In this document: positions 21,395 through 43,508 of the stretch, piece after piece
How positions within the stretch are numbered: the stretch's first letter is position 1
Layout: each line of letters starts with the position of its first letter
Assembly: GCA_965248435.1 (NCBI GenBank)
Contig: OZ252100.1
Location: 1,856,001 to 1,920,000 of the forward strand
DNA: 64,000 bases
Origin: Candidatus Latescibacterota bacterium
GTDB lineage: Bacteria > Latescibacterota > UBA2968 > GCA-2709665
Reading direction: 5' to 3'
Program-made: the position numbers and the translations under genes
Notes under the pieces: model-generated
Told to the model about the DNA's origin: nothing
The model's database searches: none
What the model saw: only the letters and a program-made list of their open reading frames with translations

Positions 21395-22186
21395 TCAAAT
21401 CCTGAGAAACGACTCCGGATTATCCCATTGTCCCTTTTCGTACTGAAACTTCACTGTCTTATCCACTAAGATTTGCCCGTCCTCCGACAACACGATACGC
21501 GCCCGCTCCAGGGGTCTTGGGGCAGGTCCCTCGAAGTTGATCCCCGTGGAATAGAACCCGCTTCCGTGACACGGGCACTTGAATTTCTGTTCGTTGACAA
21601 GCCAGTTCGGCGTACACCCCAGGTGTGTGCAGACTGAAATGAGGGCGAACATCCCATCTGTATTCCGGACAATCCAGATGGCGAACTTGTCTTTCCATCG
21701 CTCGTCTACTGCCCCCATCGCATACTCATCGGGAAAACCGATCTTGAAAAATTGGGGAGGCTCGAACAACACGTTCGGAAACATGAAACGAGCAGTCGCC
21801 AGAAGACCCGCGGTACTCGCCGAAGCGAACGCGACCCAGGCAAGAGCCAGCCAGGAGAAGAATCCCCTGCGAGTCGTAATCCCCCCTTCTAAGACCGACT
21901 GCATTCGGGGCGGTCCCGGCCTGACAGACCTGGGCGCCGGAGAGGTCTGAATCACCACCTCGCGCTCCTTGGAACCCTCCTCTTTCTTCGCGGTCAAACT
22001 CCGCGCAGCCGAGGCCCGATCGGCAGCCCCTTCAGCCTTCTTTGCCGGTGCCTTCGCCGCCGGCTGCGAGGGAGCATCGGTCCCGCCCCCGCGCGCCTTG
22101 CGCATGGCTTCCGCCTTTGCCTTCGCCCTTGCTACGCGGTCCGGGATATCATCGAATGAAGAAAGATCTACATCTTCCTCAGCCAT
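21395..22186 (-). CDS. petC: Rieske [2Fe-2S] subunit with a long N-terminal extension
   Basis: Tat motif TRRGFF plus TM; CTHLGC...CPCHGS; GPAPRPL. Confidence 0.93.
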   Translation of the reverse strand: MAEEDVDLSSFDDIPDRVARAKAKAEAMRKARGGGTDAPSQPAAKAPAKKAEGAADRASAARSLTAKKEEGSKEREVVIQTSPAPRSVRPGPPRMQSVLEGGITTRRGFFSWLALAWVAFASASTAGLLATARFMFPNVLFEPPQFFKIGFPDEYAMGAVDERWKDKFAIWIVRNTDGMFALISVCTHLGCTPNWLVNEQKFKCPCHGSGFYSTGINFEGPAPRPLERARIVLSEDGQILVDKTVKFQYEKGQWDNPESFLRI

Positions 22187-23462: not shown

Positions 23463-23490
23463 TTGACAAGGCAGAACAAAGCGCTATATT
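23463..23490 (+). promoter_or_regulatory. Sigma70-like promoter (ferredoxin-domain gene)
   Basis: TTGACA-N16-TATATT. Confidence 0.55.
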
Positions 23491-23549
23491 CCCCCCTCGA
23501 CGGACGAATGCAGAGCCTGGTGCCACCTACTTCAAATAAGGAAAACTAT

Positions 23550-24299
23550 TTGGTTGACGTCGATCTGTCTCAATTCGATGATATCGCCGATCGAGTGGCC
23601 AGAGCCAAAGCGAAATCCGAAGCTCTACGAAAGGCGAAAAGCGGCGAAGACAGTGGGGATTCGTCCCCCGGTCTGTCCGCACAACCGACTGCGGAAGAAC
23701 CAGTTAGCAAGGCTGTCGAGGCAACCGCCGGAAAGACAGCTGTGACTGGACTTCAAATCCTGGAATTTGCCCTTGGGACGCATTTCAAATTGAAAGGTCG
23801 AGCGGGCAGGGTCATCGGCACGCGGTATGACCTCGTCAGTTTTGTGTATGACGATGATCCCGGGCAGACGGTGACGGCGGATCGATATCGATTGAGCAAC
23901 GCCTATGCCGAAGGAGCCCTCGAGTTTGCGCCCAAATCTGAGGCCTATCGCCCCGATCGGGTCAACAAGACGGATCGAATTGACTACCACGAATATGTCT
24001 GGCTCGACACCAGGAAGGGGATGACGGCAAAGAAGAAACGACCGCGCTCGATTGCCATCATCAACCCCGATTATTGCACGGGGTGCGACGCCTGTATCGA
24101 AGTATGTCCAACCGATTGCATTGAAGAAGTGGACGTGGCGGACGCAGGTCTGGATGGGATCGGAAGCTTTTGCGAAGTTCGGCTCAGTGACTGCATCGGG
24201 TGCGTCCAATGCGTACACATCTGCCCGTGGGAAGCCATCGACATGGTCGATACTGATAAAGTAGAGGACGCGTACGGACTCCCCACAGGCAGCCTATAG
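23550..24299 (+). CDS. 2x[4Fe-4S] ferredoxin-domain protein with an N-terminal tag and an unknown middle domain
   Basis: CTGCDACIEVCP and CIGCVQCVHICP; TTG start after an AAGGA RBS. Confidence 0.88.
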   Translation: MVDVDLSQFDDIADRVARAKAKSEALRKAKSGEDSGDSSPGLSAQPTAEEPVSKAVEATAGKTAVTGLQILEFALGTHFKLKGRAGRVIGTRYDLVSFVYDDDPGQTVTADRYRLSNAYAEGALEFAPKSEAYRPDRVNKTDRIDYHEYVWLDTRKGMTAKKKRPRSIAIINPDYCTGCDACIEVCPTDCIEEVDVADAGLDGIGSFCEVRLSDCIGCVQCVHICPWEAIDMVDTDKVEDAYGLPTGSL

Positions 24300-24391: not shown

Positions 24392-24421
24392 TTGACTTCG
24401 CTGACATAATGTCTATATATT
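24392..24421 (+). promoter_or_regulatory. Sigma70-like promoter of the mamA-like operon
   Basis: TTGACT-N18-TATATT; palindrome GACATAATGTC in the spacer. Confidence 0.45.
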
Positions 24422-24649
24422 GTGACAAATTAACGAGTAAGCATAACATCTTGGTGGCATCGGTTCTCCCCCCGCTCAAGTGACCGCTTTTTTTCTCCAC
24501 GGAGATCTAGCCTCAGGTCCGGTTCCTAGTAGACCTAATCAGTCAGGCATCTCTTCTCACCAAAACCGTCCAGGCTCTCATTCTGAGCACTGGACGACTC
24601 CCAGTCTCCTTTGAGCTGTATCGTCAGATTCGCCTGAGGAGGAATCCCA

Positions 24650-25570
24650 TTGCAATCAGGGGAATCCATTAGCCGTCAGAAGAAGCAAGATAAGTCAGCT
24701 TCTTCATCTGCCTCTGCAAGTCAGTCACGCCCTAACCCCGAAAACCGAACCCTTGAGACATTGACCGAATACATGGGCTCCGACGCAGGCCTCAAAAGGA
24801 CCGCCATCTCGACATCTGGTGGAGACGAACGTCTGGATAGAGACCCGGATAGGTCCCCTGGTTCAAAGGAAAGGCTCCTCCAGGAGTGGGAGATCGAAGA
24901 CTCGGCCGAAGCAGGCCCTCCTTCCGAAGAGGATCTGCTCAAGCGGATGGAGATTCTGGAAACACGGCTTGACGCCTTCGAAACCACCTGCTACACCTTC
25001 CTTCTCTATGCCAAACAGCTTACCGATAGAACCGTTTCGTTTTTCGAAGACATTTTTGGTCTTGGCCAGGATGACCTTGCGCAGATTCACGACCGACTTG
25101 GTGTAAACTACAACAACAAGGGTGACTACGAAAAAGCCGTAGAGGCATTCAAGAAGCTCGTGGAAATAAACCGCACCCCAGCTTCCTGCTTTAAGCTGGG
25201 CGTCGCCTCGGACAACAATGGAGACTTTCAGGGAGCCATCGAAGCACTCCGGACAGCAATCTCCATGGACAAGGAATACCTCAAGGCCTACTACAAACTG
25301 GCGGAAGTCTACGCCAGAGTCGAAAACTTTGGAGAAGCCATCAGATTTCTCACACAGGCAACAGAGATCGATCCGAAAAATGACGAGACACAATACAGAC
25401 TGGGCAATGTGCACAGTGCACGGGGGAGTTACGACCAGGCGATTGCCGCGTTCAACAAAGTACTGAAATCGAATCCGAGCTTCCCGGGCATTTATCAGAG
25501 CCTTGGAATCGCCTATGAGCAAAAGGGCGATCAACCCAAAGCCCTGGAGTTCTTTAAAAAATCAATCTAA
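24650..25570 (+). CDS. MamA-like TPR protein with a ~100-aa N-terminal extension
   Basis: 5 TPRs preceded by a MamA-like P0 region (LDAFE...YAKQL...FFEDIFGLGQDD); FKLGVASDN and YEQKG...ALEFFKK resemble MamA; GAGGAGG RBS; upstream of mamK. Confidence 0.65.
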   Translation: MQSGESISRQKKQDKSASSSASASQSRPNPENRTLETLTEYMGSDAGLKRTAISTSGGDERLDRDPDRSPGSKERLLQEWEIEDSAEAGPPSEEDLLKRMEILETRLDAFETTCYTFLLYAKQLTDRTVSFFEDIFGLGQDDLAQIHDRLGVNYNNKGDYEKAVEAFKKLVEINRTPASCFKLGVASDNNGDFQGAIEALRTAISMDKEYLKAYYKLAEVYARVENFGEAIRFLTQATEIDPKNDETQYRLGNVHSARGSYDQAIAAFNKVLKSNPSFPGIYQSLGIAYEQKGDQPKALEFFKKSI

Positions 25571-25580
25571 TGCGGTTACC

Positions 25581-26012
25581 TTGAGCATACGAGCCCTGAC
25601 AAACCGCCTGCGAGAAGAGCAGATAGAAGCCCTGAGGCAGAGAAAGTATGCGCCTTTGACGGCCGGGCCTCCGAGCGAGCCTGCCGTGCCGGCGCGGGCC
25701 GAGCCCGAGGTTAGAGAAAATAATGAATCGTCCTCTCTGGCCGAAGCCGGGTTTTCTGCCGATCCATCCGGACAGAACGACATTCCCAAGGTCGGGTTGC
25801 GCTTTCAGAATCGCGATGCGCGTTGGCAGGTGCCGTGCGGCATCGTCGAGCGTTTCGGTCTTTCTGCCTTTAACGAAACTTTTCCAGAAACAGCGACGAT
25901 TCCCGCCAACTCCAATTCAGACGTTCAGGACGAGCCCGGGGAGGAAGTGGAACCGGCATACTCCACTGTAGACCCTGAGCCGATAACGATCGAACTGCAA
26001 TCACACAAGTAG
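25581..26012 (+). CDS. Acidic Pro/Glu-rich hypothetical protein (start uncertain)
   Basis: Fills the gap between the mamA-like and mamK-like genes on the same strand; no clear RBS. Confidence 0.5.
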   Translation: MSIRALTNRLREEQIEALRQRKYAPLTAGPPSEPAVPARAEPEVRENNESSSLAEAGFSADPSGQNDIPKVGLRFQNRDARWQVPCGIVERFGLSAFNETFPETATIPANSNSDVQDEPGEEVEPAYSTVDPEPITIELQSHK

Positions 26013-26090
26013 ACATCCAGAAACGGGTTGTTTCTCGTCCCGTAGCTCGGGAAAGCGTGTCCAGAGGTCAAGAAGAAGGGGAAGGGAAAA

Positions 26091-27174
26091 ATGGCTGAAG
26101 AAACCAGATCGGACGCCACCGGCGGGTTCGCCACGCAGCAGGGCAACGGGAAGCCGCTTTCTTTGGGCATCGACCTGGGCACGGCAAACAGTGCGGTTGC
26201 GACCAGCACCGACATCACGCGAACCGTACCGAGCGTGGTGGGGTGGCCGAAGGATCTGGTTGCCTTTAAATTCCTGCAAAAGCCCATTGTATTTGGTGAA
26301 GAGTGTATCAGAAACCGCATGTCGCTCGACATCTTCTACCCGCTCGATAAAGGGGTCCTTAAGTATAGACCCGATTCCTCGAGGTATGACGACGTGCCGG
26401 GTGACAACCGTGAGGTGGCCGCAGTCGAAGAACTCGTAAGACACGTCGTGGATTTGGCAGAAATTCGATCCGGAGACGCTGTCCGTGCTGTGGTCGGATC
26501 ACCAGCGCTCGCAAGCGCCAGTGATAAACAGGCATTGGTTGAAGTAATGCGGAATCTGGTCGACTCCGTGATGGTCGTGTCAGAGCCCTTCCTGGTCGCA
26601 TACGGCCTTGGCCTTTACAACAACGCCCTCGTAGTGGATATCGGAGCAGGGACGCTTGACCTCTGCAGGATGCACGGCACTATCCCGGACGAGTCCGACC
26701 AAAGAACGTTGTACCATGCCGGAAACTCCATCGACGAAAACTTTCATTCGCTCCTGCAGGAAAAGGTGAAAGACTCGCCCATTTCCCTCCATTTCGCGAG
26801 GAGCATCAAGGAACGCTATGCCTTCGTTTCGCCAATAACAGAAGGCATCAGCGTTGAGTTTCAAGTTGAGGGGAAACCGGTTCTCTATAATATCGCAGAT
26901 GAACTCAAGGAGGCCTGCGAGGGTATCCTGCCGGATATGCTCGAGGCGATTCGGGAGTTGTTTACGACCTTCGAGCCGGAATTTCAAGATGAGCTTCGAA
27001 ACAACATCATCTTGGCCGGCGGAGGAAGTCAAATCAGAGGTCTACCAGAAGTCATCGAGGCCAACCTCGCCGAATTCGGACCAGCACGGCGTCGATGATC
27101 CCATCTACGCGGGCGCACTTGGTGCGCTCAAGCTTGCCCAGGATATGCCCCCCAGCGAGTGGGAAAACGTCTAG
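26091..27174 (+). pseudogene. mamK: MamK-like bacterial actin, frameshifted at ~27090 (real lesion or sequence error)
   Basis: LGIDLGT, SVVGWPKD, VVSEPFLVAYGL, VDIGAGT, FEPEFQ, NIILAGGGSQIRGL; the conserved tail VDDPIYAGALGALKLAQDMPPSEW lies in the +1 frame ending at 27174. Confidence 0.85.
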
Positions 27175-27215
27175 AAAACTCACCCTTGCTTTAACCCTCA
27201 TCCACTAATATTTCC

Positions 27216-27830
27216 GTGTCCGACACTCTCCTGAATCTCCAACTCGATCAGATCGACCAGCGAAGTTTGCCGCTTCGTCAACGATTGGGTAGCAGCGAAC
27301 TCGAAGAGCTGAAACGATCCATCCAACGATATGGCGTCATCGAACCCGTTGTCGTTGCCCAGTCAGAGTCAGGCTACAAGCTCGTTGTCGGCAGAAGAAG
27401 ATTTGAGGCGTGCCGACTTCTCGGGCTGGAGACCATTCCCGCGATCGTACGAAAGATGTCCGACGAGCGGGGCCGCGAACTCTCTTATCAGTCAAACCTT
27501 CAGAGTGAGATGCTCAATCTGGCCGACGAGGTCGAATTCCTTCGTAGCATCGACATATTCCACCTACCCGATGAAGAAATCGCCAGTCGATTTGGCATGT
27601 CCCCCGAGGAAGTCTCCGTGGCGAAACGGTTTAATCGTCTACCGCCCCCGCTTCGGGAGGCCGTGCGCACTGGAGAAATCGATGAACGTCGCGCACTGGC
27701 CTTGACTCGACTCTCAGGTGAGGTCGAGCAGACGCGGTTTTTTCGCTACATCCAGCAAAACGATCCACCTCTGGAAATCTTGGAAAAGAGGATAGACGAA
27801 GCCCGAGACGGGACCGCGGCACATATCTAA
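27216..27830 (+). CDS. ParB/Spo0J-like protein (short)
   Basis: LKRSIQRYGVIEPVVV, GRRRFEA, IPAIVR, SNLQSEMLN and an HTH-like segment. Confidence 0.85.
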   Translation: MSDTLLNLQLDQIDQRSLPLRQRLGSSELEELKRSIQRYGVIEPVVVAQSESGYKLVVGRRRFEACRLLGLETIPAIVRKMSDERGRELSYQSNLQSEMLNLADEVEFLRSIDIFHLPDEEIASRFGMSPEEVSVAKRFNRLPPPLREAVRTGEIDERRALALTRLSGEVEQTRFFRYIQQNDPPLEILEKRIDEARDGTAAHI

Positions 27831-27853
27831 CGTTCAGACAGACTTGCAAGTGT

Positions 27854-27895
27854 AAAGGCCCCGCCGGACTGATCCGGTGGGGCCTTTGCGCTTTT
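27854..27895 (+). terminator. Intrinsic terminator
   Basis: 15-bp stem AAAGGCCCCGCCGGA/TCCGGTGGGGCCTTT followed by a T-rich tail. Confidence 0.8.
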
Positions 27896-27917
27896 CGCAT
27901 CATCAAACAATCAAACC

Positions 27918-28972
27918 CCCGAGTTCAATAAGGAAGTGCAACACTTAGGGTAGCAACTGTCCTATCCTAAGTGTATGGGAAACAATTACAAGCATCTTAC
28001 GATAGACGAACGCGAGCAGATTGCGCTTTGTCGAGCCACTGGTGCAAGCCTTAGAGATATTGCCAAGGCCCTTGACCGGAGCGCCAGCACGATTTCAAGA
28101 GAGTTGAAACGTAATCCGTCCCCGATAGCTGAGAGTTACTCGGGCCTCCAGGCTCACAGAAGGGCTGAGAAACGTAAGCGGGAGGCCGGCAAGCGGAAAC
28201 GGCTGAAGAATCCGGTTATCCGGCGATATGTCGAGACCAAACTCAAGCAAGGATGGTCTCCCGAGTTGATCGCTGGGAGGCTTCCCGAGGAGCGTCCGAG
28301 CGCGGGTATCAGCCACGAAGCCATCTACCAGTATATCTACGATCCAAAGGTGCACAAGCAGCGGGATCTGGTTGCTTGCTTATCCCGAGCTCACAAAAAA
28401 CGAAAGCCGCGGTGGCATACCCGAAAACACCGGGAAAGCCACATTCCAGGCCGTATTTCGATCGATCGACGTCCCCGTTACATCGAAAAACGGAAACAAC
28501 CTGGCCACTGGGAATCCGACACCATCATCTCTCGTGAGAGCAAACAGGCCGTTGGCGCTTGTCTTGAGCGATCGTCGAGATACCTACACCTGGCTAAGCT
28601 GGCAAAGAACGGACCCTCGGAGGTCGCCGAAGCGATTAATCGACGCCTTGGGCGACATCCTCCCCACATGAGGAAGAGCATCACATATGACAACGGATCC
28701 GAAAACGGCCAACATCAACGGGTCAACGAGGTGCTTGGCACCAAATCCTATTTCTGCAAACCGTTCCACAGCTGGGAGCGAGGCGCTGTGGAAAACGCTA
28801 TCGGTCTGGTCCGCAGATACCTCCCCAAGAAGACAGACTTCTCAAAGGTCAGCAAACACGAGTTAAAGAAAATTCAGAACCGGATCAACAACCGACCAAG
28901 AAAATGTCTTAACTTCAAAACACCAGCTGAAGTCTTCAAGTCCAAGTGTTGCACTTAGTCATTGAATCCAGC
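27918..28972 (+). mobile_element. IS30-family insertion sequence (ends approximate)
   Basis: Imperfect terminal IRs 27921-27946 / 28944-28969 (21/26 match, core AAGTGCAACACTT) flanking a transposase. Confidence 0.9.
27975..28958 (+). CDS. IS30-family transposase
   Basis: HTH (IAKALDRSASTISRELKRN), WSPELI, GHWESDT, ITYDNGSE, WERGAVEN, NNRPRKCL. Confidence 0.95.
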   Translation: MGNNYKHLTIDEREQIALCRATGASLRDIAKALDRSASTISRELKRNPSPIAESYSGLQAHRRAEKRKREAGKRKRLKNPVIRRYVETKLKQGWSPELIAGRLPEERPSAGISHEAIYQYIYDPKVHKQRDLVACLSRAHKKRKPRWHTRKHRESHIPGRISIDRRPRYIEKRKQPGHWESDTIISRESKQAVGACLERSSRYLHLAKLAKNGPSEVAEAINRRLGRHPPHMRKSITYDNGSENGQHQRVNEVLGTKSYFCKPFHSWERGAVENAIGLVRRYLPKKTDFSKVSKHELKKIQNRINNRPRKCLNFKTPAEVFKSKCCT

Positions 28973-28979
28973 ACCCTGA

Positions 28980-29930
28980 TTAACCGGCCTCCAATCTGCT
29001 CAGCACTTCACTCATGTCGTCAGGAGTCTCCGCGCGAAATTCGAGATGCTTCTCAGAAATCGGGTGAACAAAACCAAGGGTTTCCGCGTGCAGCATCGTC
29101 CGACCGGCTGCCATCAACAGCTGCCTGGCATCGATCCGAAATCGGGGATCGATTCCCTTGACCCGGACGACCCCGCCCCCATAGACCGTGTCCGAAAAGA
29201 CGGGGTGCCCCAGGTGTGCCAGATGCACACGAATCTGGTGCGTCCTACCGGTCTCGAGTCGCACTTTTAAAAACGAGAGAAAATCGTAACGCCTGGCCAC
29301 TTTGAAACGGGTGGCTGCATGTCGACCTGATTCCCGGACCGAGAGACGCTTTCGGTTTGCAGGGTCACGCCCTATAGGGGCTTCGATTCTTCCCACGTCC
29401 TCCGGAAGATGACCCCAGACGAGCACGCGATACCGTCGAACGACCGTCCGGGCTTCAAGCTGTTTGGAAAGCCCTCGATGGGCTGCATCATCTTTGGCCA
29501 CCACCAAAAGGCCAGACGTCTCTTTGTCCAGACGATGCACAATTCCGGGGCGCAGGACGCCGTTAATACCAGAAAGCTCACGGCAGTGGCCGAGTAGGGC
29601 ATTGACGAGCGTTCCAGAGCGGAGTTTCCCCGCTGGGTGTACGACCATACCGGCGGGTTTGTTGACGACCAGAATGTGTTCATCCTCAAAAAAAATATCC
29701 AGAGGGATTTCCTCTGGATCTGCGGATGCCTTCTCCACGGGGGGAAGTCGGACCTCTATGTGCTCACCGGGTGAAACTCGATAACTCGGCCGAACGGCCC
29801 TCCCATCTACATCTACCTGTCCGCTTTCGATAAGCGCCTGGACACGAGACCGGGAATGGTCCTCACAGACCGAGGCCAGCAGCCTGTCAAGTCGTTCCCC
29901 GCTATCCTCGAGGCGGACCTCCACCTTCAC
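28980..29930 (-). CDS. rluD: RluA-family pseudouridine synthase (RluD)
   Basis: S4 domain, NKPAGMVVHP, HRLDKETSG, TGRTHQIRVH. Confidence 0.93.
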   Translation of the reverse strand: MKVEVRLEDSGERLDRLLASVCEDHSRSRVQALIESGQVDVDGRAVRPSYRVSPGEHIEVRLPPVEKASADPEEIPLDIFFEDEHILVVNKPAGMVVHPAGKLRSGTLVNALLGHCRELSGINGVLRPGIVHRLDKETSGLLVVAKDDAAHRGLSKQLEARTVVRRYRVLVWGHLPEDVGRIEAPIGRDPANRKRLSVRESGRHAATRFKVARRYDFLSFLKVRLETGRTHQIRVHLAHLGHPVFSDTVYGGGVVRVKGIDPRFRIDARQLLMAAGRTMLHAETLGFVHPISEKHLEFRAETPDDMSEVLSRLEAG

Positions 29931-37724: not shown

Positions 37725-40700
37725 CTACCGGTAGACGATCAACCGCTCCTTGACGCGTACTGCATCCGAGCCCTCCTCCGCCATAACGGTGTAGAGGTAG
37801 ACTCCGTTCGCGAGCCTGTTTCCTTCCCCGTCCCTGCCGTTCCAGTGGACCTGATTGAAGCCGACCGCACCCCTAAGGTTATCCAGAACGCGGATCAGCC
37901 TTCCGGAAACCGTATAGATTCGGATCGTTACCTCGGAATCTCTGGACAGCAGATAAGTAAATTCCGTATCCTCGACCACCGGGTTGGGCACGTTCAGTAC
38001 GCGTTCGATTCGGAGTTCGGAGGAAACCCGAAAGAGGAGCGTTTTGCTCACTGGACCGTTCCCCAATCTGTCCGTTGCCGAGACCTCCAGCCTATATCGG
38101 TCATCTTCCAAACTTGGACTATAAACGAAACGAAGCGAAGACCTCTGCTCAACCAGGTCGCGCACCGCGACCGAAGAAAGTCCATCCGATACCTCTACGG
38201 TTTCTCCTCCCTTCAGGATGATCTCCACCGTTTCGGCGTCGATTCCGCTCGAATCTGTTATTGAAATCTGGAACCGGGGCTGCTGCGGGAGGAAATCTTC
38301 CGGTCGCACCTCTCCTCGTGCATCCAGGGCACTGATCTCAACCTCCGGGGCCTCCTGATCCCCGCTCGGAAGGACTTCGACTTCCTCCGTCGCACGAACG
38401 TCTTGTGCGTAGAAACTGGGCCTACCCAGTAGATCCTCGACCCGGGCGTGCACGATCTGTCGCCCGCCAAAGGTCGCCGTCTGCCAGATCACCGAAACAC
38501 GTTTCGACTCGCCGAGAGGGGTCTCCTCAGGCACCGCCACGCGGCCGATCAGTCGACCCTGGTCAGGAGGCCCACTGTAGAATGCCACGGCCCCCCCCAC
38601 GACCCGGTTCAAGGGACCTCTGTTCAGAACCTCTATGCTTAGCGTGATCGGACGGAGCTCCTCCACGGACTGAGGCACTATGTTGAGGTCGGAGAGATGT
38701 AGATTGGGAAGCGGTTGGAATCTTACGGACCACTCTGTCAACCCCGGCGAAGGTCCGATCCCCTCCGCAGACACCTCCAGCTGAAGACGAATGCGGCGGA
38801 AGGAAGGGTCCAGCCCTCCCAAGTCGATCGCGGAACCTGGCTGTATACCGGACCAACCCGGGATCGAAACGAACCGGCCGGCGGTGTCTTCACCCAGAAT
38901 GTCTACCTCGGCCAGGGCCCCGGTCGACGATGCCCCTTGGATGGAAAAGCTGAGGCTCCCCCACGACCCTGCCGGGCCGATCGGGTCTGACGTGAGCTTG
39001 CCGACATCAGGAGGCATCAGCCCCCCGTAGCGATAAATCGTCGGGCCGTTCAACTGTCCCAGCCAGACCTGGTTGTTTACCCAATCATACTGACCCCCGA
39101 GGATATCCGTCTCGGCCTGATCGCTATCGTACTCGGTCACAAACGCGCCATTCATCGCGTCCACGACCCTCACACGATGCGTCAATCCGGTTCCGAACTC
39201 GATCAGATAGAGAAATCGTCCATCGGCCAGGATTCCATCCGTGAAAAGGTAGGTAAATCCGGTGGATGTGGGCGCGACGACAAATTCCCTGACCAGGCGC
39301 CACGCTTCATCCGGATCGAACACCCGCACTTTCCATCCTGCCCGGGGAATCCCGTCCACGCCCCAAGAGACGTTAAACACAAGATTGCCATCCGACGTAA
39401 TGAGTGAATGTCCTCGAAATACAAGGCCGTTATCCTCTTTGAGCAATCCGTCGGGCACTTGCACTCTGTCCATCGCCCCCGTTTCCGGCGATATTCGGAC
39501 CAGTTCATCGCTTTCACCATCATCGGCGTATATAAACCCGTCACTGTGGTACGTCGCAGAAATACCCACAACAGGTTCCTCTGAAAGCCTGCCGTAGTTC
39601 TGGCCGGCGACCGTGCCCCCGAACCCCGTTCCGATTCGCTCGAATATGTCACTTCCCGGGTAGAGGGCTTGGGAGGCATTAAACCGTTTCAAGTAGAGGA
39701 ACCTCCCGTCCGTACAGAGTACGGCGGTGCTGCTAACACCGTCCCCAGGGAAAAAAACCTCCCGACTCTGCGCTTCTACGCGCATTGGCGGGGGCTGCAG
39801 GACACGGCCCACCGATCCATCTGAATAAAGCTCCACATCCTCCGGTAATCCCAAAACGAGCGCCTCAGGCCCTCGTTGTCGCCATACAAGCTCCCTCTGC
39901 AGGGGATCCCCCGCCATCACCGAGAAAGCCTGGGGGTCTGTCCACGCCCCCCGGTCTTGTCCGTCCGTCAACCGCGCCCGCCAGTAGTAGACGCCCTCAT
40001 GAAGTCCGACGGGCCGCCAGATCACCAGCGCACCTTCACCCTCTGACGCGACGAGCCCGGAACGGACCACGCCCGCATCATCGAACGTCGCTGTTGGGCT
40101 CACCTCGAACTCTCCAAGGACGTCACCTGATCCTGCTTCACCCTCCAGGCTTACAACAAGCTGGACGTTGGAGGCCGGAACTGTCTGATTCTCCAGAGGC
40201 GTGGAAGGCGTCCCCACGAGTCCGCCCAGGACCTCCAGATCGACTTCCAGACGGTTGTTCGTCTCGTCCAGCTCCTCGATTCGATCGCCCGGGTCCAGCT
40301 GCACCTCCAGCCGATGCGCGCCTGCCAGACCTCTGAGCCTCCAGATCGTTGTTACGCTGTCTTTCTGGCCGAACGGGGGGAGGGTTGCAGCGAACAAGGT
40401 GTCCGATTCCCCCCGTCCGAGATGTCGGTCCAGTATAAGCAGGTCCAGCCCCTCCTGCGAAGGGATGCCCCAATTTTCGATCCGCAGAGTAACGCGTGTT
40501 GAATCCCCGTCGATCAGCTCCTCTTCCCGCTCCACATTCACGGCCAGATCTGGAAACGTGTAGTCCGCCTTTGAGAGGAGGGCCAGACCCTGAGCAGGGT
40601 CCCCCATCAACTGCATTCCCTGTGCGGAGCTGACGAGCCCAGGAAAAGCAGTGAGCATATCGATCTTTGCGAGGGCCAGGCTCTGTCCGAACTGCGGGAT

Positions 40701-43508
40701 GTCCTCCTGAAAGATGTGTCTAAACATGGCCTGATTGAAAAATCGATTCGTGAAGAGAAAGGCGAGGGTCGAGGCCGACACGTAGGCGATCGCCCCTCCG
40801 TCTGCTTTGTTTACCATCTCCTCTGACAGGGATACGCGCCGCGGGTTTGCAAAGAGGCCATTCAGGCACGACATGGCGACGACCAGAGGCAGGCGCTCCT
40901 CGTTTCTGATCTGAATCATATAACTGTAGTTTCCCTGCTGGAAGGTACCTCTCAAGAAGAAAGCCATGATGGCGAAGCTTCCGTGTCCTGCGAAATTCAC
41001 GACCAGCCGCCCCTCGTTGAATTGCTCTATGACCCTCCTGGTGTCTTCATTTGGTTCAGGCGTTTCGTCTTTGTTATAGACCTTGAACGTCTCCAGGCCG
41101 AACGGCTCGGTAAAGTTTCTGGCCAGGGAGTCACTGGGACCGGTCGAAAAAATATCAGAGTTCGCCATGTAGAGAACGCGATCCCGCCACCGGGCCGCTA
41201 AGGTCTCGTCATACGCAGTCACCTTCCTCACGACGGTCTCCATATCGCGCTCATTGGATATCGAGAACCGGCCTACAAAGACATCCTGAAACTGATCTTC
41301 ACCGGCAACGGCGCCGTAGAAATGATCCGTGTATGCCACACCCCGTGTGGCGGTCTGGAACGGCAGCGCCGGTACATAATTTACGCGTCCAGATTCCGAC
41401 TCTCCAAACAGGTCCCGAAAATCGTAACTCGCTCTGCCAAGCAGGACCAGATAGACCGGACGCCTCGCCCAGGTATCGAACGCGTGTGCCACAAACAGGA
41501 GAATCGCTTCGGGGTCTATCTGTCCAAATGAGAACTCATCATAGATGTCCTCAACGTCCACGACCATCACCTCGAGTCCGTCCGTCTGTCGGTGGGCCGC
41601 CAGGGCCTCCGCACCCTCCTGGAAAAGGCTGTGAGTGACGACCACATAATCTGCACCTGACCCTTCTCCAAGAAGGTCTGAGGGGACGTCGAATCGAGCA
41701 GGATCCGGACGAAGGATGGCCGCCGAGTCTGCTGCGATGAACCGCCCACTCCTCTCACTGAGGTCGAAACGCACACGAAATCCCACACCATCCGGCTCCA
41801 CCTCTACCCCCTCCAGGACCCTGCCTCTATCCAGATCGTAAACAGACACCGAAGGTGCCCGAAAGCCTTCGATTGACAGCCCGATACCGGTCGATTCCTG
41901 CCCCAGGCTGAAAAGGAGCAAACCCCCGTCCGCCTGGAACTTTCTGGGATAGGAGATTTGGATCCAGTTCAGGAGCACATGATCCACATAGGTGTCAGGG
42001 AAGTCCGGGCTGCCCGGACCGGACAAGGTCACAAGGGTAGTCTCGGACAAGGCGATGGCCGGAATCTCTCCCGTTGCGATGAATTCCGTCTGGCCGTCCC
42101 AACGATCATCGGCGAGAACCAGACCTTCATTCACGTCGACAACGGTCCGGTGGTCAAAATCGAGCCCCTTTATCGACGTCAATCCGTGCATGCCCACCCG
42201 GACCTGACCGACAGCCCCCGCCTCCGAATTTAGCCCAGGAAGGAAAACAGGGACCGTCGTCGGAAACGCCTCAACATTTAACCCGGTAGAAGCCGACGCG
42301 GTCCGTCGCCAGTACCAGTGGTCTCGTTCCGCATCCGCGGCCAGCCCCAGAGGTTCGTAGATCGAATCGACCTCAGCGTGCTGGAGGGAGATAAACCAGG
42401 GCGATACTGTGAAACCATTTGCCGGGCTCGCGTCCATCGATTCCATTCGCCTTCCGGGCGCGCCGTCAAAGGTCAGCCAGTAAACATTTTCCCTTCCAAA
42501 ATCACTCTCGAAGTCCCGGTCGACCCTCCGTCTGAATTCTCCGTAAAAGAAAATTCCATCTCCCTCGTCCAGACCTCCGTCCTCGCCGCCCCTGACTTCC
42601 AGCGGGATCTCCTCACCGTTCAAATAGATCCGGAGCGTAGTCAGGTCGACAGCGGCAAGATCGATCTCCGAATCGGAGAACCAGTCGGCGTCCAGTCGAT
42701 AGATTCCGTCCTGTGTCACACTCAGCTTGTAATAGGCGGCCGCCGGGTCATACCAGCCGGTCTGTAGCTTGCGAAGCCCGACGGCCGAATCTGTTCGACT
42801 TCGCCAGTCCCTGGCCTCATTCGCATTCAGCAGTGCCTTCCGATAAATCGATTCGAAGGCGTCTTCGGCAACCCGAGCTCCAGGCCTGGATACCCCGAAT
42901 CTCCGCTCGGCCGAAAATCCGACCCGCACTCGAAGACGCTTCGCAACCCTCAGGATCCTACGCACAGGGTTGTAGTGCAGCGGTCGAAGGGATACCGCCG
43001 CCACACGCTGATCGCGGATGACGCCGGTCAAACCCATCTCCGCATCATCACCGGGATAGAATCGATCTTCGGCATAGAAGCGATCATCGGGCGCGTAGCG
43101 TTCCTGTATGCGCTGAAAATCCTCTCGTCCGACGAGCTGTGTTTCTGGTACCGGCATCAGGTTTACGTCAGGGACCTCCTCGTATTCCACATCAAGCACC
43201 TCCAGGGACAACTCGGTCCCGAAGGGCACACCGATCAGGACACCCCTAGCAGGGACAGCAGGACGCCCCGGCTCCGCCAACCAGACCGCCCCGGGCAGGT
43301 CGATCCGGTCAAATTCCTCTCCATCCACAACAAGGCGACTCGTCTGGTAGCCGGACCCACTGATCTCTATCACGACACCCCTCGCGTCGGAGGATAGGAC
43401 AACCGGCTCGCCACTTCCTGGACGAGCAACTGCCGCACGTGAAGATACGCCCAAGAAGAAAACAGCGAGTGATACGACCACCGGCGTGGTGCTGGAAGAG
43501 AATGTCAT
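37725..43508 (-). CDS. C25 (gingipain/PorU-like) cysteine peptidase with CARDB-like and FlgD-Ig/T9SS-like C-terminal domains
   Basis: Signal peptide and propeptide; DIYDEFSFG; FAGHGS and MSCLNG catalytic motifs; LMGDP; 'IRIYTVSGRLIR...WNGRD...ANGVYLY'. Confidence 0.85.
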   Translation of the reverse strand: MTFSSSTTPVVVSLAVFFLGVSSRAAVARPGSGEPVVLSSDARGVVIEISGSGYQTSRLVVDGEEFDRIDLPGAVWLAEPGRPAVPARGVLIGVPFGTELSLEVLDVEYEEVPDVNLMPVPETQLVGREDFQRIQERYAPDDRFYAEDRFYPGDDAEMGLTGVIRDQRVAAVSLRPLHYNPVRRILRVAKRLRVRVGFSAERRFGVSRPGARVAEDAFESIYRKALLNANEARDWRSRTDSAVGLRKLQTGWYDPAAAYYKLSVTQDGIYRLDADWFSDSEIDLAAVDLTTLRIYLNGEEIPLEVRGGEDGGLDEGDGIFFYGEFRRRVDRDFESDFGRENVYWLTFDGAPGRRMESMDASPANGFTVSPWFISLQHAEVDSIYEPLGLAADAERDHWYWRRTASASTGLNVEAFPTTVPVFLPGLNSEAGAVGQVRVGMHGLTSIKGLDFDHRTVVDVNEGLVLADDRWDGQTEFIATGEIPAIALSETTLVTLSGPGSPDFPDTYVDHVLLNWIQISYPRKFQADGGLLLFSLGQESTGIGLSIEGFRAPSVSVYDLDRGRVLEGVEVEPDGVGFRVRFDLSERSGRFIAADSAAILRPDPARFDVPSDLLGEGSGADYVVVTHSLFQEGAEALAAHRQTDGLEVMVVDVEDIYDEFSFGQIDPEAILLFVAHAFDTWARRPVYLVLLGRASYDFRDLFGESESGRVNYVPALPFQTATRGVAYTDHFYGAVAGEDQFQDVFVGRFSISNERDMETVVRKVTAYDETLAARWRDRVLYMANSDIFSTGPSDSLARNFTEPFGLETFKVYNKDETPEPNEDTRRVIEQFNEGRLVVNFAGHGSFAIMAFFLRGTFQQGNYSYMIQIRNEERLPLVVAMSCLNGLFANPRRVSLSEEMVNKADGGAIAYVSASTLAFLFTNRFFNQAMFRHIFQEDIPQFGQSLALAKIDMLTAFPGLVSSAQGMQLMGDPAQGLALLSKADYTFPDLAVNVEREEELIDGDSTRVTLRIENWGIPSQEGLDLLILDRHLGRGESDTLFAATLPPFGQKDSVTTIWRLRGLAGAHRLEVQLDPGDRIEELDETNNRLEVDLEVLGGLVGTPSTPLENQTVPASNVQLVVSLEGEAGSGDVLGEFEVSPTATFDDAGVVRSGLVASEGEGALVIWRPVGLHEGVYYWRARLTDGQDRGAWTDPQAFSVMAGDPLQRELVWRQRGPEALVLGLPEDVELYSDGSVGRVLQPPPMRVEAQSREVFFPGDGVSSTAVLCTDGRFLYLKRFNASQALYPGSDIFERIGTGFGGTVAGQNYGRLSEEPVVGISATYHSDGFIYADDGESDELVRISPETGAMDRVQVPDGLLKEDNGLVFRGHSLITSDGNLVFNVSWGVDGIPRAGWKVRVFDPDEAWRLVREFVVAPTSTGFTYLFTDGILADGRFLYLIEFGTGLTHRVRVVDAMNGAFVTEYDSDQAETDILGGQYDWVNNQVWLGQLNGPTIYRYGGLMPPDVGKLTSDPIGPAGSWGSLSFSIQGASSTGALAEVDILGEDTAGRFVSIPGWSGIQPGSAIDLGGLDPSFRRIRLQLEVSAEGIGPSPGLTEWSVRFQPLPNLHLSDLNIVPQSVEELRPITLSIEVLNRGPLNRVVGGAVAFYSGPPDQGRLIGRVAVPEETPLGESKRVSVIWQTATFGGRQIVHARVEDLLGRPSFYAQDVRATEEVEVLPSGDQEAPEVEISALDARGEVRPEDFLPQQPRFQISITDSSGIDAETVEIILKGGETVEVSDGLSSVAVRDLVEQRSSLRFVYSPSLEDDRYRLEVSATDRLGNGPVSKTLLFRVSSELRIERVLNVPNPVVEDTEFTYLLSRDSEVTIRIYTVSGRLIRVLDNLRGAVGFNQVHWNGRDGEGNRLANGVYLYTVMAEEGSDAVRVKERLIVYR

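Follow-up and report, generated by a model that had tools for sequence, protein, structure and literature searches.

MamK, an actin, and MamA, a protein built of tetratricopeptide repeats (TPRs), are textbook proteins of the magnetosome, and magnetotactic bacteria are recognised by mamK as a marker gene. Both genes normally belong to a magnetosome gene cluster. Here, we describe a four-gene operon in which relatives of these two proteins are encoded together with an acidic protein and a short protein of ParB/Noc type, and which occurs without such a cluster in its genome or in the representatives of its phylum. The operon lies in a stretch of 64,000 nucleotides of Candidatus Latescibacterota bacterium (assembly GCA_965248435.1, contig OZ252100.1, positions 1,856,001 to 1,920,000; G000:C1:1856001-1920000 in our numbering), which is referred to below as the window and to which all positions without a contig name refer. 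The genome, G000, comprises 5.67 Mb in 2 contigs and is 97.5% complete, and each statement about what it lacks is to be read within that completeness. The operon is a single transcription unit of the + strand (24392-27895) with the genes of the TPR protein, the acidic protein, the actin, and the ParB-like protein in this order. We read it as a chromosomal, vertically inherited cytoskeletal operon of one marine Latescibacterota class, which would work as a DNA-coupled actin filament system. We hold the descriptive part of this reading with high confidence, whereas for the reading as a whole our confidence is evenly divided, and DNA as the partner of the filament is a tentative proposal.

MamK-like genes outside magnetotactic bacteria are known in passing. 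According to one report (PMC11929497), BeeR is 25-30% identical to MamK and represents a MamK-related family of non-magnetotactic bacteria. Another (PMC7449369) gives 2798 MamK-like metagenome sequences, 227 of them with Mam neighbours, and these sequences may include members of the clade described here. Homologues of mamK in Thiomargarita are mentioned in a preprint (10.1101/2022.04.11.487978). No MamK/MamA/ParB unit is described in the literature that we searched, and an actin coupled to a ParB-family CTPase, as predicted here from gene content, would be undescribed as far as that search reaches.

The gene of the MamK-family actin (26091-27098, + strand; open reading frame (ORF) and profile) comprises 332 codons in frame, followed by RRR and a premature stop. 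The first-pass annotation of the window, made from its letters and translations, had judged this protein to be MamK-like rather than MreB on the basis of the motifs SVVGWPKD, VVSEPFLVAYGL, FEPEFQ, and GALKLAQDMPP..W. All of them are found in the window translations, and comparison with solved structures bears the judgement out: the best match in PDB is MamK of Magnetospirillum (5LJW, with 5JYG and 5LJV for the same protein) with 249 bits (E 1e-72) over residues 22-332, as compared to 35 bits for MreB. BeeR of Verrucomicrobiota (8R2N), a MamK-related actin of non-magnetotactic bacteria with a disordered N-terminal extension, is more distant (125 vs. 249 bits). The phosphate-binding and adenosine motifs of an actin-fold ATPase (DLGT, SEPF, DIGAGT, and GGGS) are present in the window actin and are invariant across 31 aligned members of the family. 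The hidden Markov model (HMM) of MamK in NCBIfam (NF040964; curated cut-off, 400 bits) matches the window with 357.7 bits over profile positions 1-300 and with a further 25.3 bits over positions 303-332 in the next reading frame. The scores of its 11 operon-linked relatives from families f1-f3 (group A), which are 68-82% identical to each other, range from 203 to 414 bits. Nine of them score 390-414 bits, six above the cut-off (402-414) and three just below it (390-399), while the two low scores belong to an actin with an internal deletion and to another that the model matches only partly. The MamKs encoded in magnetosome clusters score 359-481 bits with the same model. A separate MreB is encoded in G000 at C1:451368-452309.

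The position of the actin within its family was analysed in a quick IQ-TREE search (LG+G4) of 92 rows, which included 11 group A sequences, 11 sequences of a second Latescibacterota clade (group B), 13 sequences of another phylum, 56 representative proteins, and G000 MreB as an outgroup. The representatives were limited to those of 320-430 residues, and shorter, longer, or fragmentary ones, as well as duplicate loci, were left out. No cultured magnetotactic organism was found among the 10 representative-protein clusters that were checked by name, and therefore the anchors of the tree were taken from gene context in the other phylum. In that phylum the MamK family was detected in 16 of 401 genomes, three of which encode a MamB-like cation diffusion facilitator (CDF) on the same contig; two of these three were confirmed as magnetosome clusters by their neighbour genes, and many members of the family there are not accompanied by a magnetosome cluster. 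Our way to this phylum led through a peptide-pattern match, L022, which itself is located in an ORF of 624 aa that, to judge by its length and 25% identity, probably encodes an Hsp70-type protein. Group A forms one clade (support 99), which is sister to group B (support 97), and both groups are nested in a larger clade (67 rows, support 94), to which the two lineages of cluster-encoded MamKs also belong. Monophyly of the four cluster-encoded MamKs, a group that was named after the tree had been seen, was rejected by 99 log-likelihood units (approximately unbiased test, p 0.002). A distinct clade of eight representative proteins outside the MamK radiation is probably a BeeR-like group. Thus placed by the tree inside the MamK radiation and apart from MreB and the probable BeeR-like group, the window actin is, as judged from its sequence, a MamK-family protein that stands between the MamKs of true magnetosome clusters. 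The MamK radiation is interleaved with members that do not belong to magnetosomes, and a match to mamK or mamA alone should not be read as magnetotaxis.

Some other members of the family show features of their own. In the other phylum, two tandem MamK-family genes each are found at L103:7708-10373 (-) and L104:7881-10734 (-), in genomes with no MamB-like gene at E 1e-40. Several public MamK-family proteins (P0130, P0133, P0135, P0137, and P0143, among others) have charged, low-complexity N-terminal extensions of 200-900 residues with no Pfam domain; these extensions recall a fused disordered adaptor, but have no motif in common with the acidic protein of the operon.

The first gene of the operon (24650-25570, + strand) encodes a TPR protein of 306 aa and begins with a TTG codon behind AGGAGG, a start that is also found in most of the relatives' upstream regions compared. 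A disordered N-terminal region of about 90 aa with small conserved motifs is followed in this protein by one long helix and five TPRs. The earlier description of the protein as MamA-like holds in part. MamA is its best NCBIfam family (NF040959) as well as its best natural structural match, but the score of 146 bits is below the cut-off of 200. The MamA of a true magnetosome cluster scored 192 bits, which is also below 200, and the scores of the other TPR genes of G000 with this model did not exceed 87 bits. All 10 TPR orthologs scanned match MamA, and the E value is 2e-49 as compared to 1.6e-24 for the next family. In the AlphaFold2 model the TPR part has pLDDT values above 90, and its best natural match in a Foldseek search was MamA of 'Ca. 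Magnetobacterium bavaricum' (31% identity, TM-score of 0.76-0.85 on the target). Solved MamA-type structures (3VTY and 3VTX; 3AS4 is another MamA structure) superpose on the model over about 164 columns with a root-mean-square deviation of 1.8-2.7 A, a fit to be expected of TPR proteins in general.

Two explanations had been offered for the occurrence of mamA- and mamK-like genes in a window with no recognisable magnetosome genes: a filament-plus-scaffold system independent of magnetosomes, or a piece of a magnetosome cluster that has been dispersed or has decayed. The lack of such genes extends from the window to the whole genome, in which HMM searches found no mam cluster elsewhere. There were no matches in G000 for CDF_MamB, MamQ, MamI, or magnetochrome, the models of MamI and magnetochrome being used without a positive control. 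Matches to MamP were at the level of PDZ domains only (at most 25 bits vs. a cut-off of 300), and those to MamE were generic HtrA proteases (at most 167 of 800 bits); dedicated models of MamO and MamL were not part of this search. Tblastn searches with MamQ and MamB of a magnetosome cluster from the other phylum (genome G486) and with MamB of a second cluster detected nothing in G000. G486 served as a positive control, with scores of 359 and 406 bits for MamK, 192 for MamA, 119 for MamQ, and 237 for MamB. Among 168 species-representative genomes of Latescibacterota none encodes a MamB with a score over the cut-off, which is strict, as deep-branching true MamBs score about 237 bits. The best sub-threshold match in the phylum (231 bits, genome G007) lies among hypF, folE, and thrC.

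A scattered or decaying remnant of a magnetosome cluster could explain why two of the four proteins are best matched by MamK and MamA, why the actin is broken, and why an insertion sequence (IS) adjoins the operon, and magnetosome clusters have been reported from the phylum (PMC7449369). However, such an island is not supported, because G000 contains none of the MamB/M-type CDF, MamQ, MamI, MamP, or magnetochrome genes, and no MamB is found over the cut-off in the 168 representatives. Moreover, 12 species have these four genes, and no others, conserved at a single housekeeping site, and similar searches did detect true clusters in another phylum. We regard this explanation as very improbable. 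The magnetosome-independent system, on the other hand, is supported by the actin of the MamK radiation, the synteny in 11 further species, and the lack of a magnetosome cluster. The operon is unrelated to magnetosomes, and its actin and TPR protein are the closest relatives that MamK and MamA have outside magnetosomes. The magnetosome clusters inspected also differ from it in their composition, as no acidic motif-bearing or ParB-type partner was seen in them. In the single full cluster seen, that of G486, mamA is 3.7 kb downstream of the actin genes and not adjacent to them.

The actin family was found in 30 of the 168 phylum genomes: in two of 21 genomes of family f1 (plus G000), six of 31 of f2, three of three of f3, 18 of 76 of f4, and none of the 36 genomes of the other ten families. 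In all 11 loci of f1-f3 the gene order is TPR, actin, ParB, with one contig ending before the ParB gene, whereas it is found in none of the 18 loci of f4. The ten relative loci compared have the TPR and actin genes in ten cases and the ParB gene in nine, the contig of the tenth ending first. Their neighbourhood is constant and consists of genes for a Rieske protein (-), a HEAT-repeat protein (-), and a ferredoxin-like protein (+), then the four genes, and then rluD-lspA-dksA-ileS (-). Thus, the synteny of the four genes, proposed earlier as a check, is kept in 11 other species; counting the window, 12 species from three families have the operon at one site, flanked by the ferredoxin-like gene and rluD. 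When metagenome contigs were scanned with an alignment of the ParB-like protein, 22 loci were obtained, 19 of them at 44% identity or more, and 18 of these 19 have the actin gene directly upstream. In the nineteenth (L122), all that is left between the ferredoxin-like gene and rluD is codons 74-204 of the ParB gene. The ParB-type gene thus appears, from its neighbours, to be an obligate member of the unit.

In the complete f1 genomes without the actin, one of which is of the same genus, the ferredoxin-like gene abuts rluD in five of five cases, and the actin is absent from 44 of the 55 f1-f3 representatives. In genome G037 the actin gene has an in-frame deletion of 67 residues (201-267). The module is thus passed on, and also discarded, as a whole; it is dispensable and is being lost. 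Its several independent stages of decay provide a clear example from nature of how a cytoskeletal module is discarded.

These data bear on two further explanations. The layout of an actin gene followed by a gene for a DNA-binding protein is that of type II partition, and an IS30-type element is adjacent, as might be expected of a partition module of an integrated plasmid or another mobile element. Nevertheless, the same site is occupied in three families, the flanks are housekeeping genes with no integrase, relaxase, or replication gene, the G+C content of the operon resembles that of its surroundings, and the IS30-type element is specific to this genome, where it is one of 29 full-length copies. 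A mobile origin is therefore hardly credible to us. The MamK-type actin might also act in a cytoskeleton for cell shape, division, or polarity, in a role like that of MreB or FtsA. The housekeeping flanks would suit such a function, and in genomes that are not magnetotactic, MamK-family actins frequently have a small coiled-coil protein as a partner, as in f4 and, with a coiled-coil likeness that is only weak and below the threshold, in genome G388 of the other phylum, where an ORF of 160 residues with a weak match to an intermediate-filament family is located between tandem MamK genes. Against this stand the separate MreB kept in G000 and the dispensability of the operon, as an essential system is unlikely to have been lost from five of five complete sisters and 44 of 55 f1-f3 representatives. 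We consider a role in shape or division quite improbable.

The 18 loci of f4 have an organization of their own, with no TPR or ParB neighbour and with the actin gene placed between transporter and oxidoreductase genes. In these loci, the actin gene is followed by a gene for a conserved coiled-coil protein of 178 residues (L062:8375-10047 (-), L063-L066), which shows 47-66% identity in four other genomes. This arrangement is a second kind of magnetosome-free MamK module.

The first-pass annotation had spoken of a repaired actin, implying a frameshift, and this frameshift is real. It is caused by an 8-bp deletion at 27088-27089 (+ strand; +1 frame shift), as determined by comparison of the region 26000-27900 with contigs of public sequencing runs. 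No difference from the window is seen in a contig of 4555 nt from the source-like run X1 (word depth 44.8). In run X5 (seawater DNA of another study), a 52.6-kb contig differs by 35 substitutions and has eight extra letters behind 27088, and the same eight letters are present in a 566-nt contig of the marine metatranscriptome X14. With them restored, the frame runs on to ...EFGPARVSRVDDPIYAGALGALKLAQDMPPSEWENV, as in every relative. The deletion in the window strain is therefore real. It does not look like a typical consensus error, and the window sequence is reproduced by an independent assembly of the same sample. The last 27 codons of the actin (DDPIYAGALGALKLAQDMPPSEWENV) are now out of frame at 27091-27174 (+ strand), where they give the 25-bit match to profile positions 303-332; in the relatives they are contiguous with the rest of the gene. 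The MamK profile covers positions 1-300 and then 303-332, so that little besides the frame has been lost. The actin in this genome is newly inactivated, with its last 27 residues cut off, and it is intact in the X5 strain and in metatranscriptome contigs. Between the window and the X5 strain, which are 98% identical, there are 12 synonymous and seven nonsynonymous substitutions in the actin gene and five of each kind in the ParB gene, and this pattern indicates that the genes were under constraint until recently. Contigs of RNA libraries span 26512-27563 in four pieces, which is a weak hint of expression, as DNA can be present in such libraries.

The operon is separated from rluD in this genome by an IS30-type element (27918-28972, + strand; family and boundary analysis), which is not part of the module. 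The element has inserted behind the terminator of the operon and ends 8 nt before the stop codon of rluD, a convergent gene. The element is not found at this site in relatives L012-L018. The X5 contig has a loose end behind 27876, too near the end of the compared stretch to bear on the presence of IS30. In G000 there are 29 full-length copies of the element, 23 of them with an identical transposase, and five partial or split ones, a pattern of a recent transposition burst. With its 8-bp deletion and the expanding IS30-type element next to it, the window represents an early stage of loss of the module. In the genomes nearest to it, all four genes are already gone.

The last gene of the operon (27216-27830, + strand) encodes a short ParB/Noc-type protein of 204 aa with a CTP-binding N domain and a ParB helix-turn-helix (HTH) domain. 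Both domains, ParB_N and ParB HTH, score above the Pfam cut-offs, and profile matches over the two include Noc (7OL9, E 2e-31), ParB (7BNR), and Spo0J (1VZ0), with E values ranging from 2e-31 to 1e-27. Ten of 10 orthologs have the invariant sequence GRRRxEAC, which corresponds to the GxRRxxA patch, and in the ENLQR motif the glutamate is replaced by serine in families f1 and f2. The ParB_N domain, the HTH domain, and the GxRRxxA patch are common to this protein and the ParB, Noc, and KorB clamps. It differs from them in that it ends at residue 204, just past the HTH domain, and has no C-terminal dimerisation domain (its length is 200-205 aa in 10 of 10 orthologs), and in that there is no ParA gene next to it: neither the ORFs nor a domain scan revealed one in the operon. 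The protein is a paralog of the ParB encoded by the parAB genes of G000, to which it is 35% identical over 153 residues. This canonical parA-parB pair is at G000:C1:1843004-1844711, 12 kb before the start of the window and 37 kb from the ParB-like gene. GC skew predicts an origin near 3.0 Mb, and the pair, at a distance of about 1.1 Mb from it, is situated mid-replichore.

In ParABS systems an adjacent ParA and parS sites accompany ParB, and neither was found at the operon. There is no perfect match in G000 to the parS consensus, and none of the four matches with two mismatches is near the operon. In the regions that precede the TPR gene and follow the ParB gene, only the promoter and a leader segment are common to relatives, and nothing centromere-like was detected. 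The chromosome does contain about 15 copies of palindromes of about 30 bp, GACCAATTTTCCA-(CGCGCG or GACGTC)-TGGAAAATTGGTC, with no link to the operon; they lie outside the window, at G000:C1:927821, 1450547, 2470036, 3442409, and 4129389, among others.

The second gene (25581-26012, + strand; the likely start is TTG at 25581, in a frame open from 25503) encodes an acidic, proline-rich protein of 143 aa with an isoelectric point of 4.6. It evolves fast (20-39% identity among orthologs) and has conserved motifs at its N-terminus (MSIRxLTxRLxEE), in its centre (IPGGIAARF), and at its C-terminus (ITIELQSH). Searches assigned it to no Pfam or NCBIfam family and gave no usable match in the ESM Atlas. 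We propose that it is a disordered adaptor. The presence of an acidic, disordered, and fast-evolving protein directly upstream of the actin is reminiscent of the MamJ-MamK pair of Magnetospirillum, which may serve as an analogy only.

The closest parallel to the logic proposed for this operon is offered by ParMRC, in which likewise the gene of an actin-fold ATPase is followed in one operon by that of a DNA-binding protein, with a filament that moves or holds DNA. Several differences set the two apart: the actin is of MamK type in place of ParM; the DNA-binding protein would be a CTP-binding HTH protein of ParB/Noc type in place of the ribbon-helix-helix protein ParR, with no parC-like repeats at the operon; and ParMRC is plasmid-borne, whereas the operon is chromosomal, vertically inherited, and has two additional components. 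In the mechanism that we propose, the actin would form ATP-driven filaments of MamK type, the TPR protein and the acidic adaptor would couple these filaments to a cargo or an anchor, and the ParB-like protein would make a DNA site the partner. Together they would position or segregate DNA in the manner of ParMRC (type II), the part of ParR being taken by a CTP-switch protein of the ParB family.

Several observations weigh against this reading. The formation of filaments is assumed from the family membership of the actin, and the interplay among the four proteins is inferred; what is named as cargo is a candidate only, as no cargo or DNA site was found. No repeat arrays or shared palindromes were detected around the operon in the window or in four relatives, and the operon is located mid-replichore, away from the origin predicted by GC skew. 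A ParB-type protein devoid of the C-terminal domain cannot close the usual clamp and may merely autoregulate its operon. The likeness of the TPR protein to MamA is weak, given its score of 146 bits with a cut-off of 200; designed consensus TPRs match it as well as MamA does, and in a tblastn search MamA of the G486 cluster missed this gene and matched 24 other TPR stretches of G000. The tree, finally, results from a quick search with four anchors only, all of them from one other phylum, and its anchor group was defined only after the tree had been inspected. A prediction of the four-chain complex of relative L012 (TPR domain, actin, ParB-like protein, and acidic protein) counts neither for nor against an interaction; its score was 0.22, under the mark of 0.32, in a run without controls and of a kind unlike that for which the tool is calibrated.

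KorB and plasmid ParB proteins are known to autoregulate their operons. In an alternative reading, the same module would position a cargo other than DNA, be it an organelle, a polar structure, or a protein body, and the ParB-like protein would do no more than autoregulate the operon in this way. Consistent with this are the lack of centromere-like repeats and shared palindromes near the operon, the lack of the dimerisation domain of clamp-forming ParBs, the conserved promoter and first part of the leader, which could hold an operator, and the sister actin of f4, which has no ParB or TPR neighbour and is accompanied by the 178-residue coiled-coil protein instead. On the other hand, an autoregulator does not need an invariant CTP-binding arginine patch, which is present in 10 of 10 orthologs. 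As for the cargoes, the one organelle examined, the bacterial microcompartment, does not track the operon, as its shell genes are encoded by 126 of the 132 class genomes irrespective of whether the operon is present, and none of the four proteins matches a membrane-protein family in Pfam or NCBIfam (no transmembrane prediction was made). We regard this alternative as the main rival of our reading, though a doubtful one.

Beyond the DNA-coupled filament system that we favour, a bolder extension can be envisaged. The operon might represent a fourth type of machine for positioning or segregating DNA, a hybrid in which a MamK-type actin motor is joined to a CTP-switch ParB-family centromere binder via a TPR scaffold and a disordered adaptor, and MamK and MamA might have been recruited to magnetosomes from such a nucleoid-positioning apparatus, or the reverse. 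We think this rather unlikely. If it were true, the origin of the magnetoskeleton would become testable in non-magnetotactic bacteria. In any case, the operon, as a simple system of four genes, lends itself to the questions of what role a MamK-type filament has without a magnetosome and of how the magnetoskeleton arose.

The organization of the locus agrees with the initial description of four co-oriented genes with a promoter and a terminator of their own, bounded by a ferredoxin gene on one side and by IS30 and rluD on the other; the ORFs and both flanks were found as described. A sigma-70-like promoter, TTGACT-18-TATATT (24392-24421, + strand), which fits the consensus at 10 of 12 positions in a promoter scan, is located downstream of the terminator of the gene for a 2x[4Fe-4S] ferredoxin-like protein (23463-24299, + strand). 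Its -35 core CTTGACTT (reverse-complement 8-mer AAGTCAAG) is common to seven of 11 upstream regions, namely, those of the window and six of 10 relatives, two of the 10 relatives' regions being incomplete. The promoter is separated from the TPR gene by a leader of about 230 nt, a possible operator or regulatory RNA, with a 5' part that is conserved among relatives. In the window the leader extends over 24422-24649, and its conserved 5' segment, ...CACATCTTGG...TTCTCCCC..., is also present in L012, L013, L015, and L018. An Rfam scan of the promoter and leader identified no family, the sole match being a sub-threshold one to McaS on the terminator of the ferredoxin gene. At the other end of the operon, a terminator-like hairpin with an 11-bp G+C-rich stem and a T-rich tail (27857-27895, + strand) was read by eye and was not listed by the terminator scan. 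The downstream flanking gene rluD is convergent (28980-29930, - strand).

The HEAT-repeat gene upstream of the operon is flanked by the Rieske gene (21395-22186, -) and the ferredoxin-like gene (23463-24299, +). Products of the latter two have a common N-terminal stretch of 38 residues (DVDLSxFDDIxDRVARAKAKxEAxRKA...), which is 68% identical between them and might serve both as a helix for docking or targeting. G000 has no further copy of it; the stretch is conserved in relatives, some of which have a third, short copy. Elsewhere in the window, an open frame of 1927 residues is present at 37725-43508 (-).

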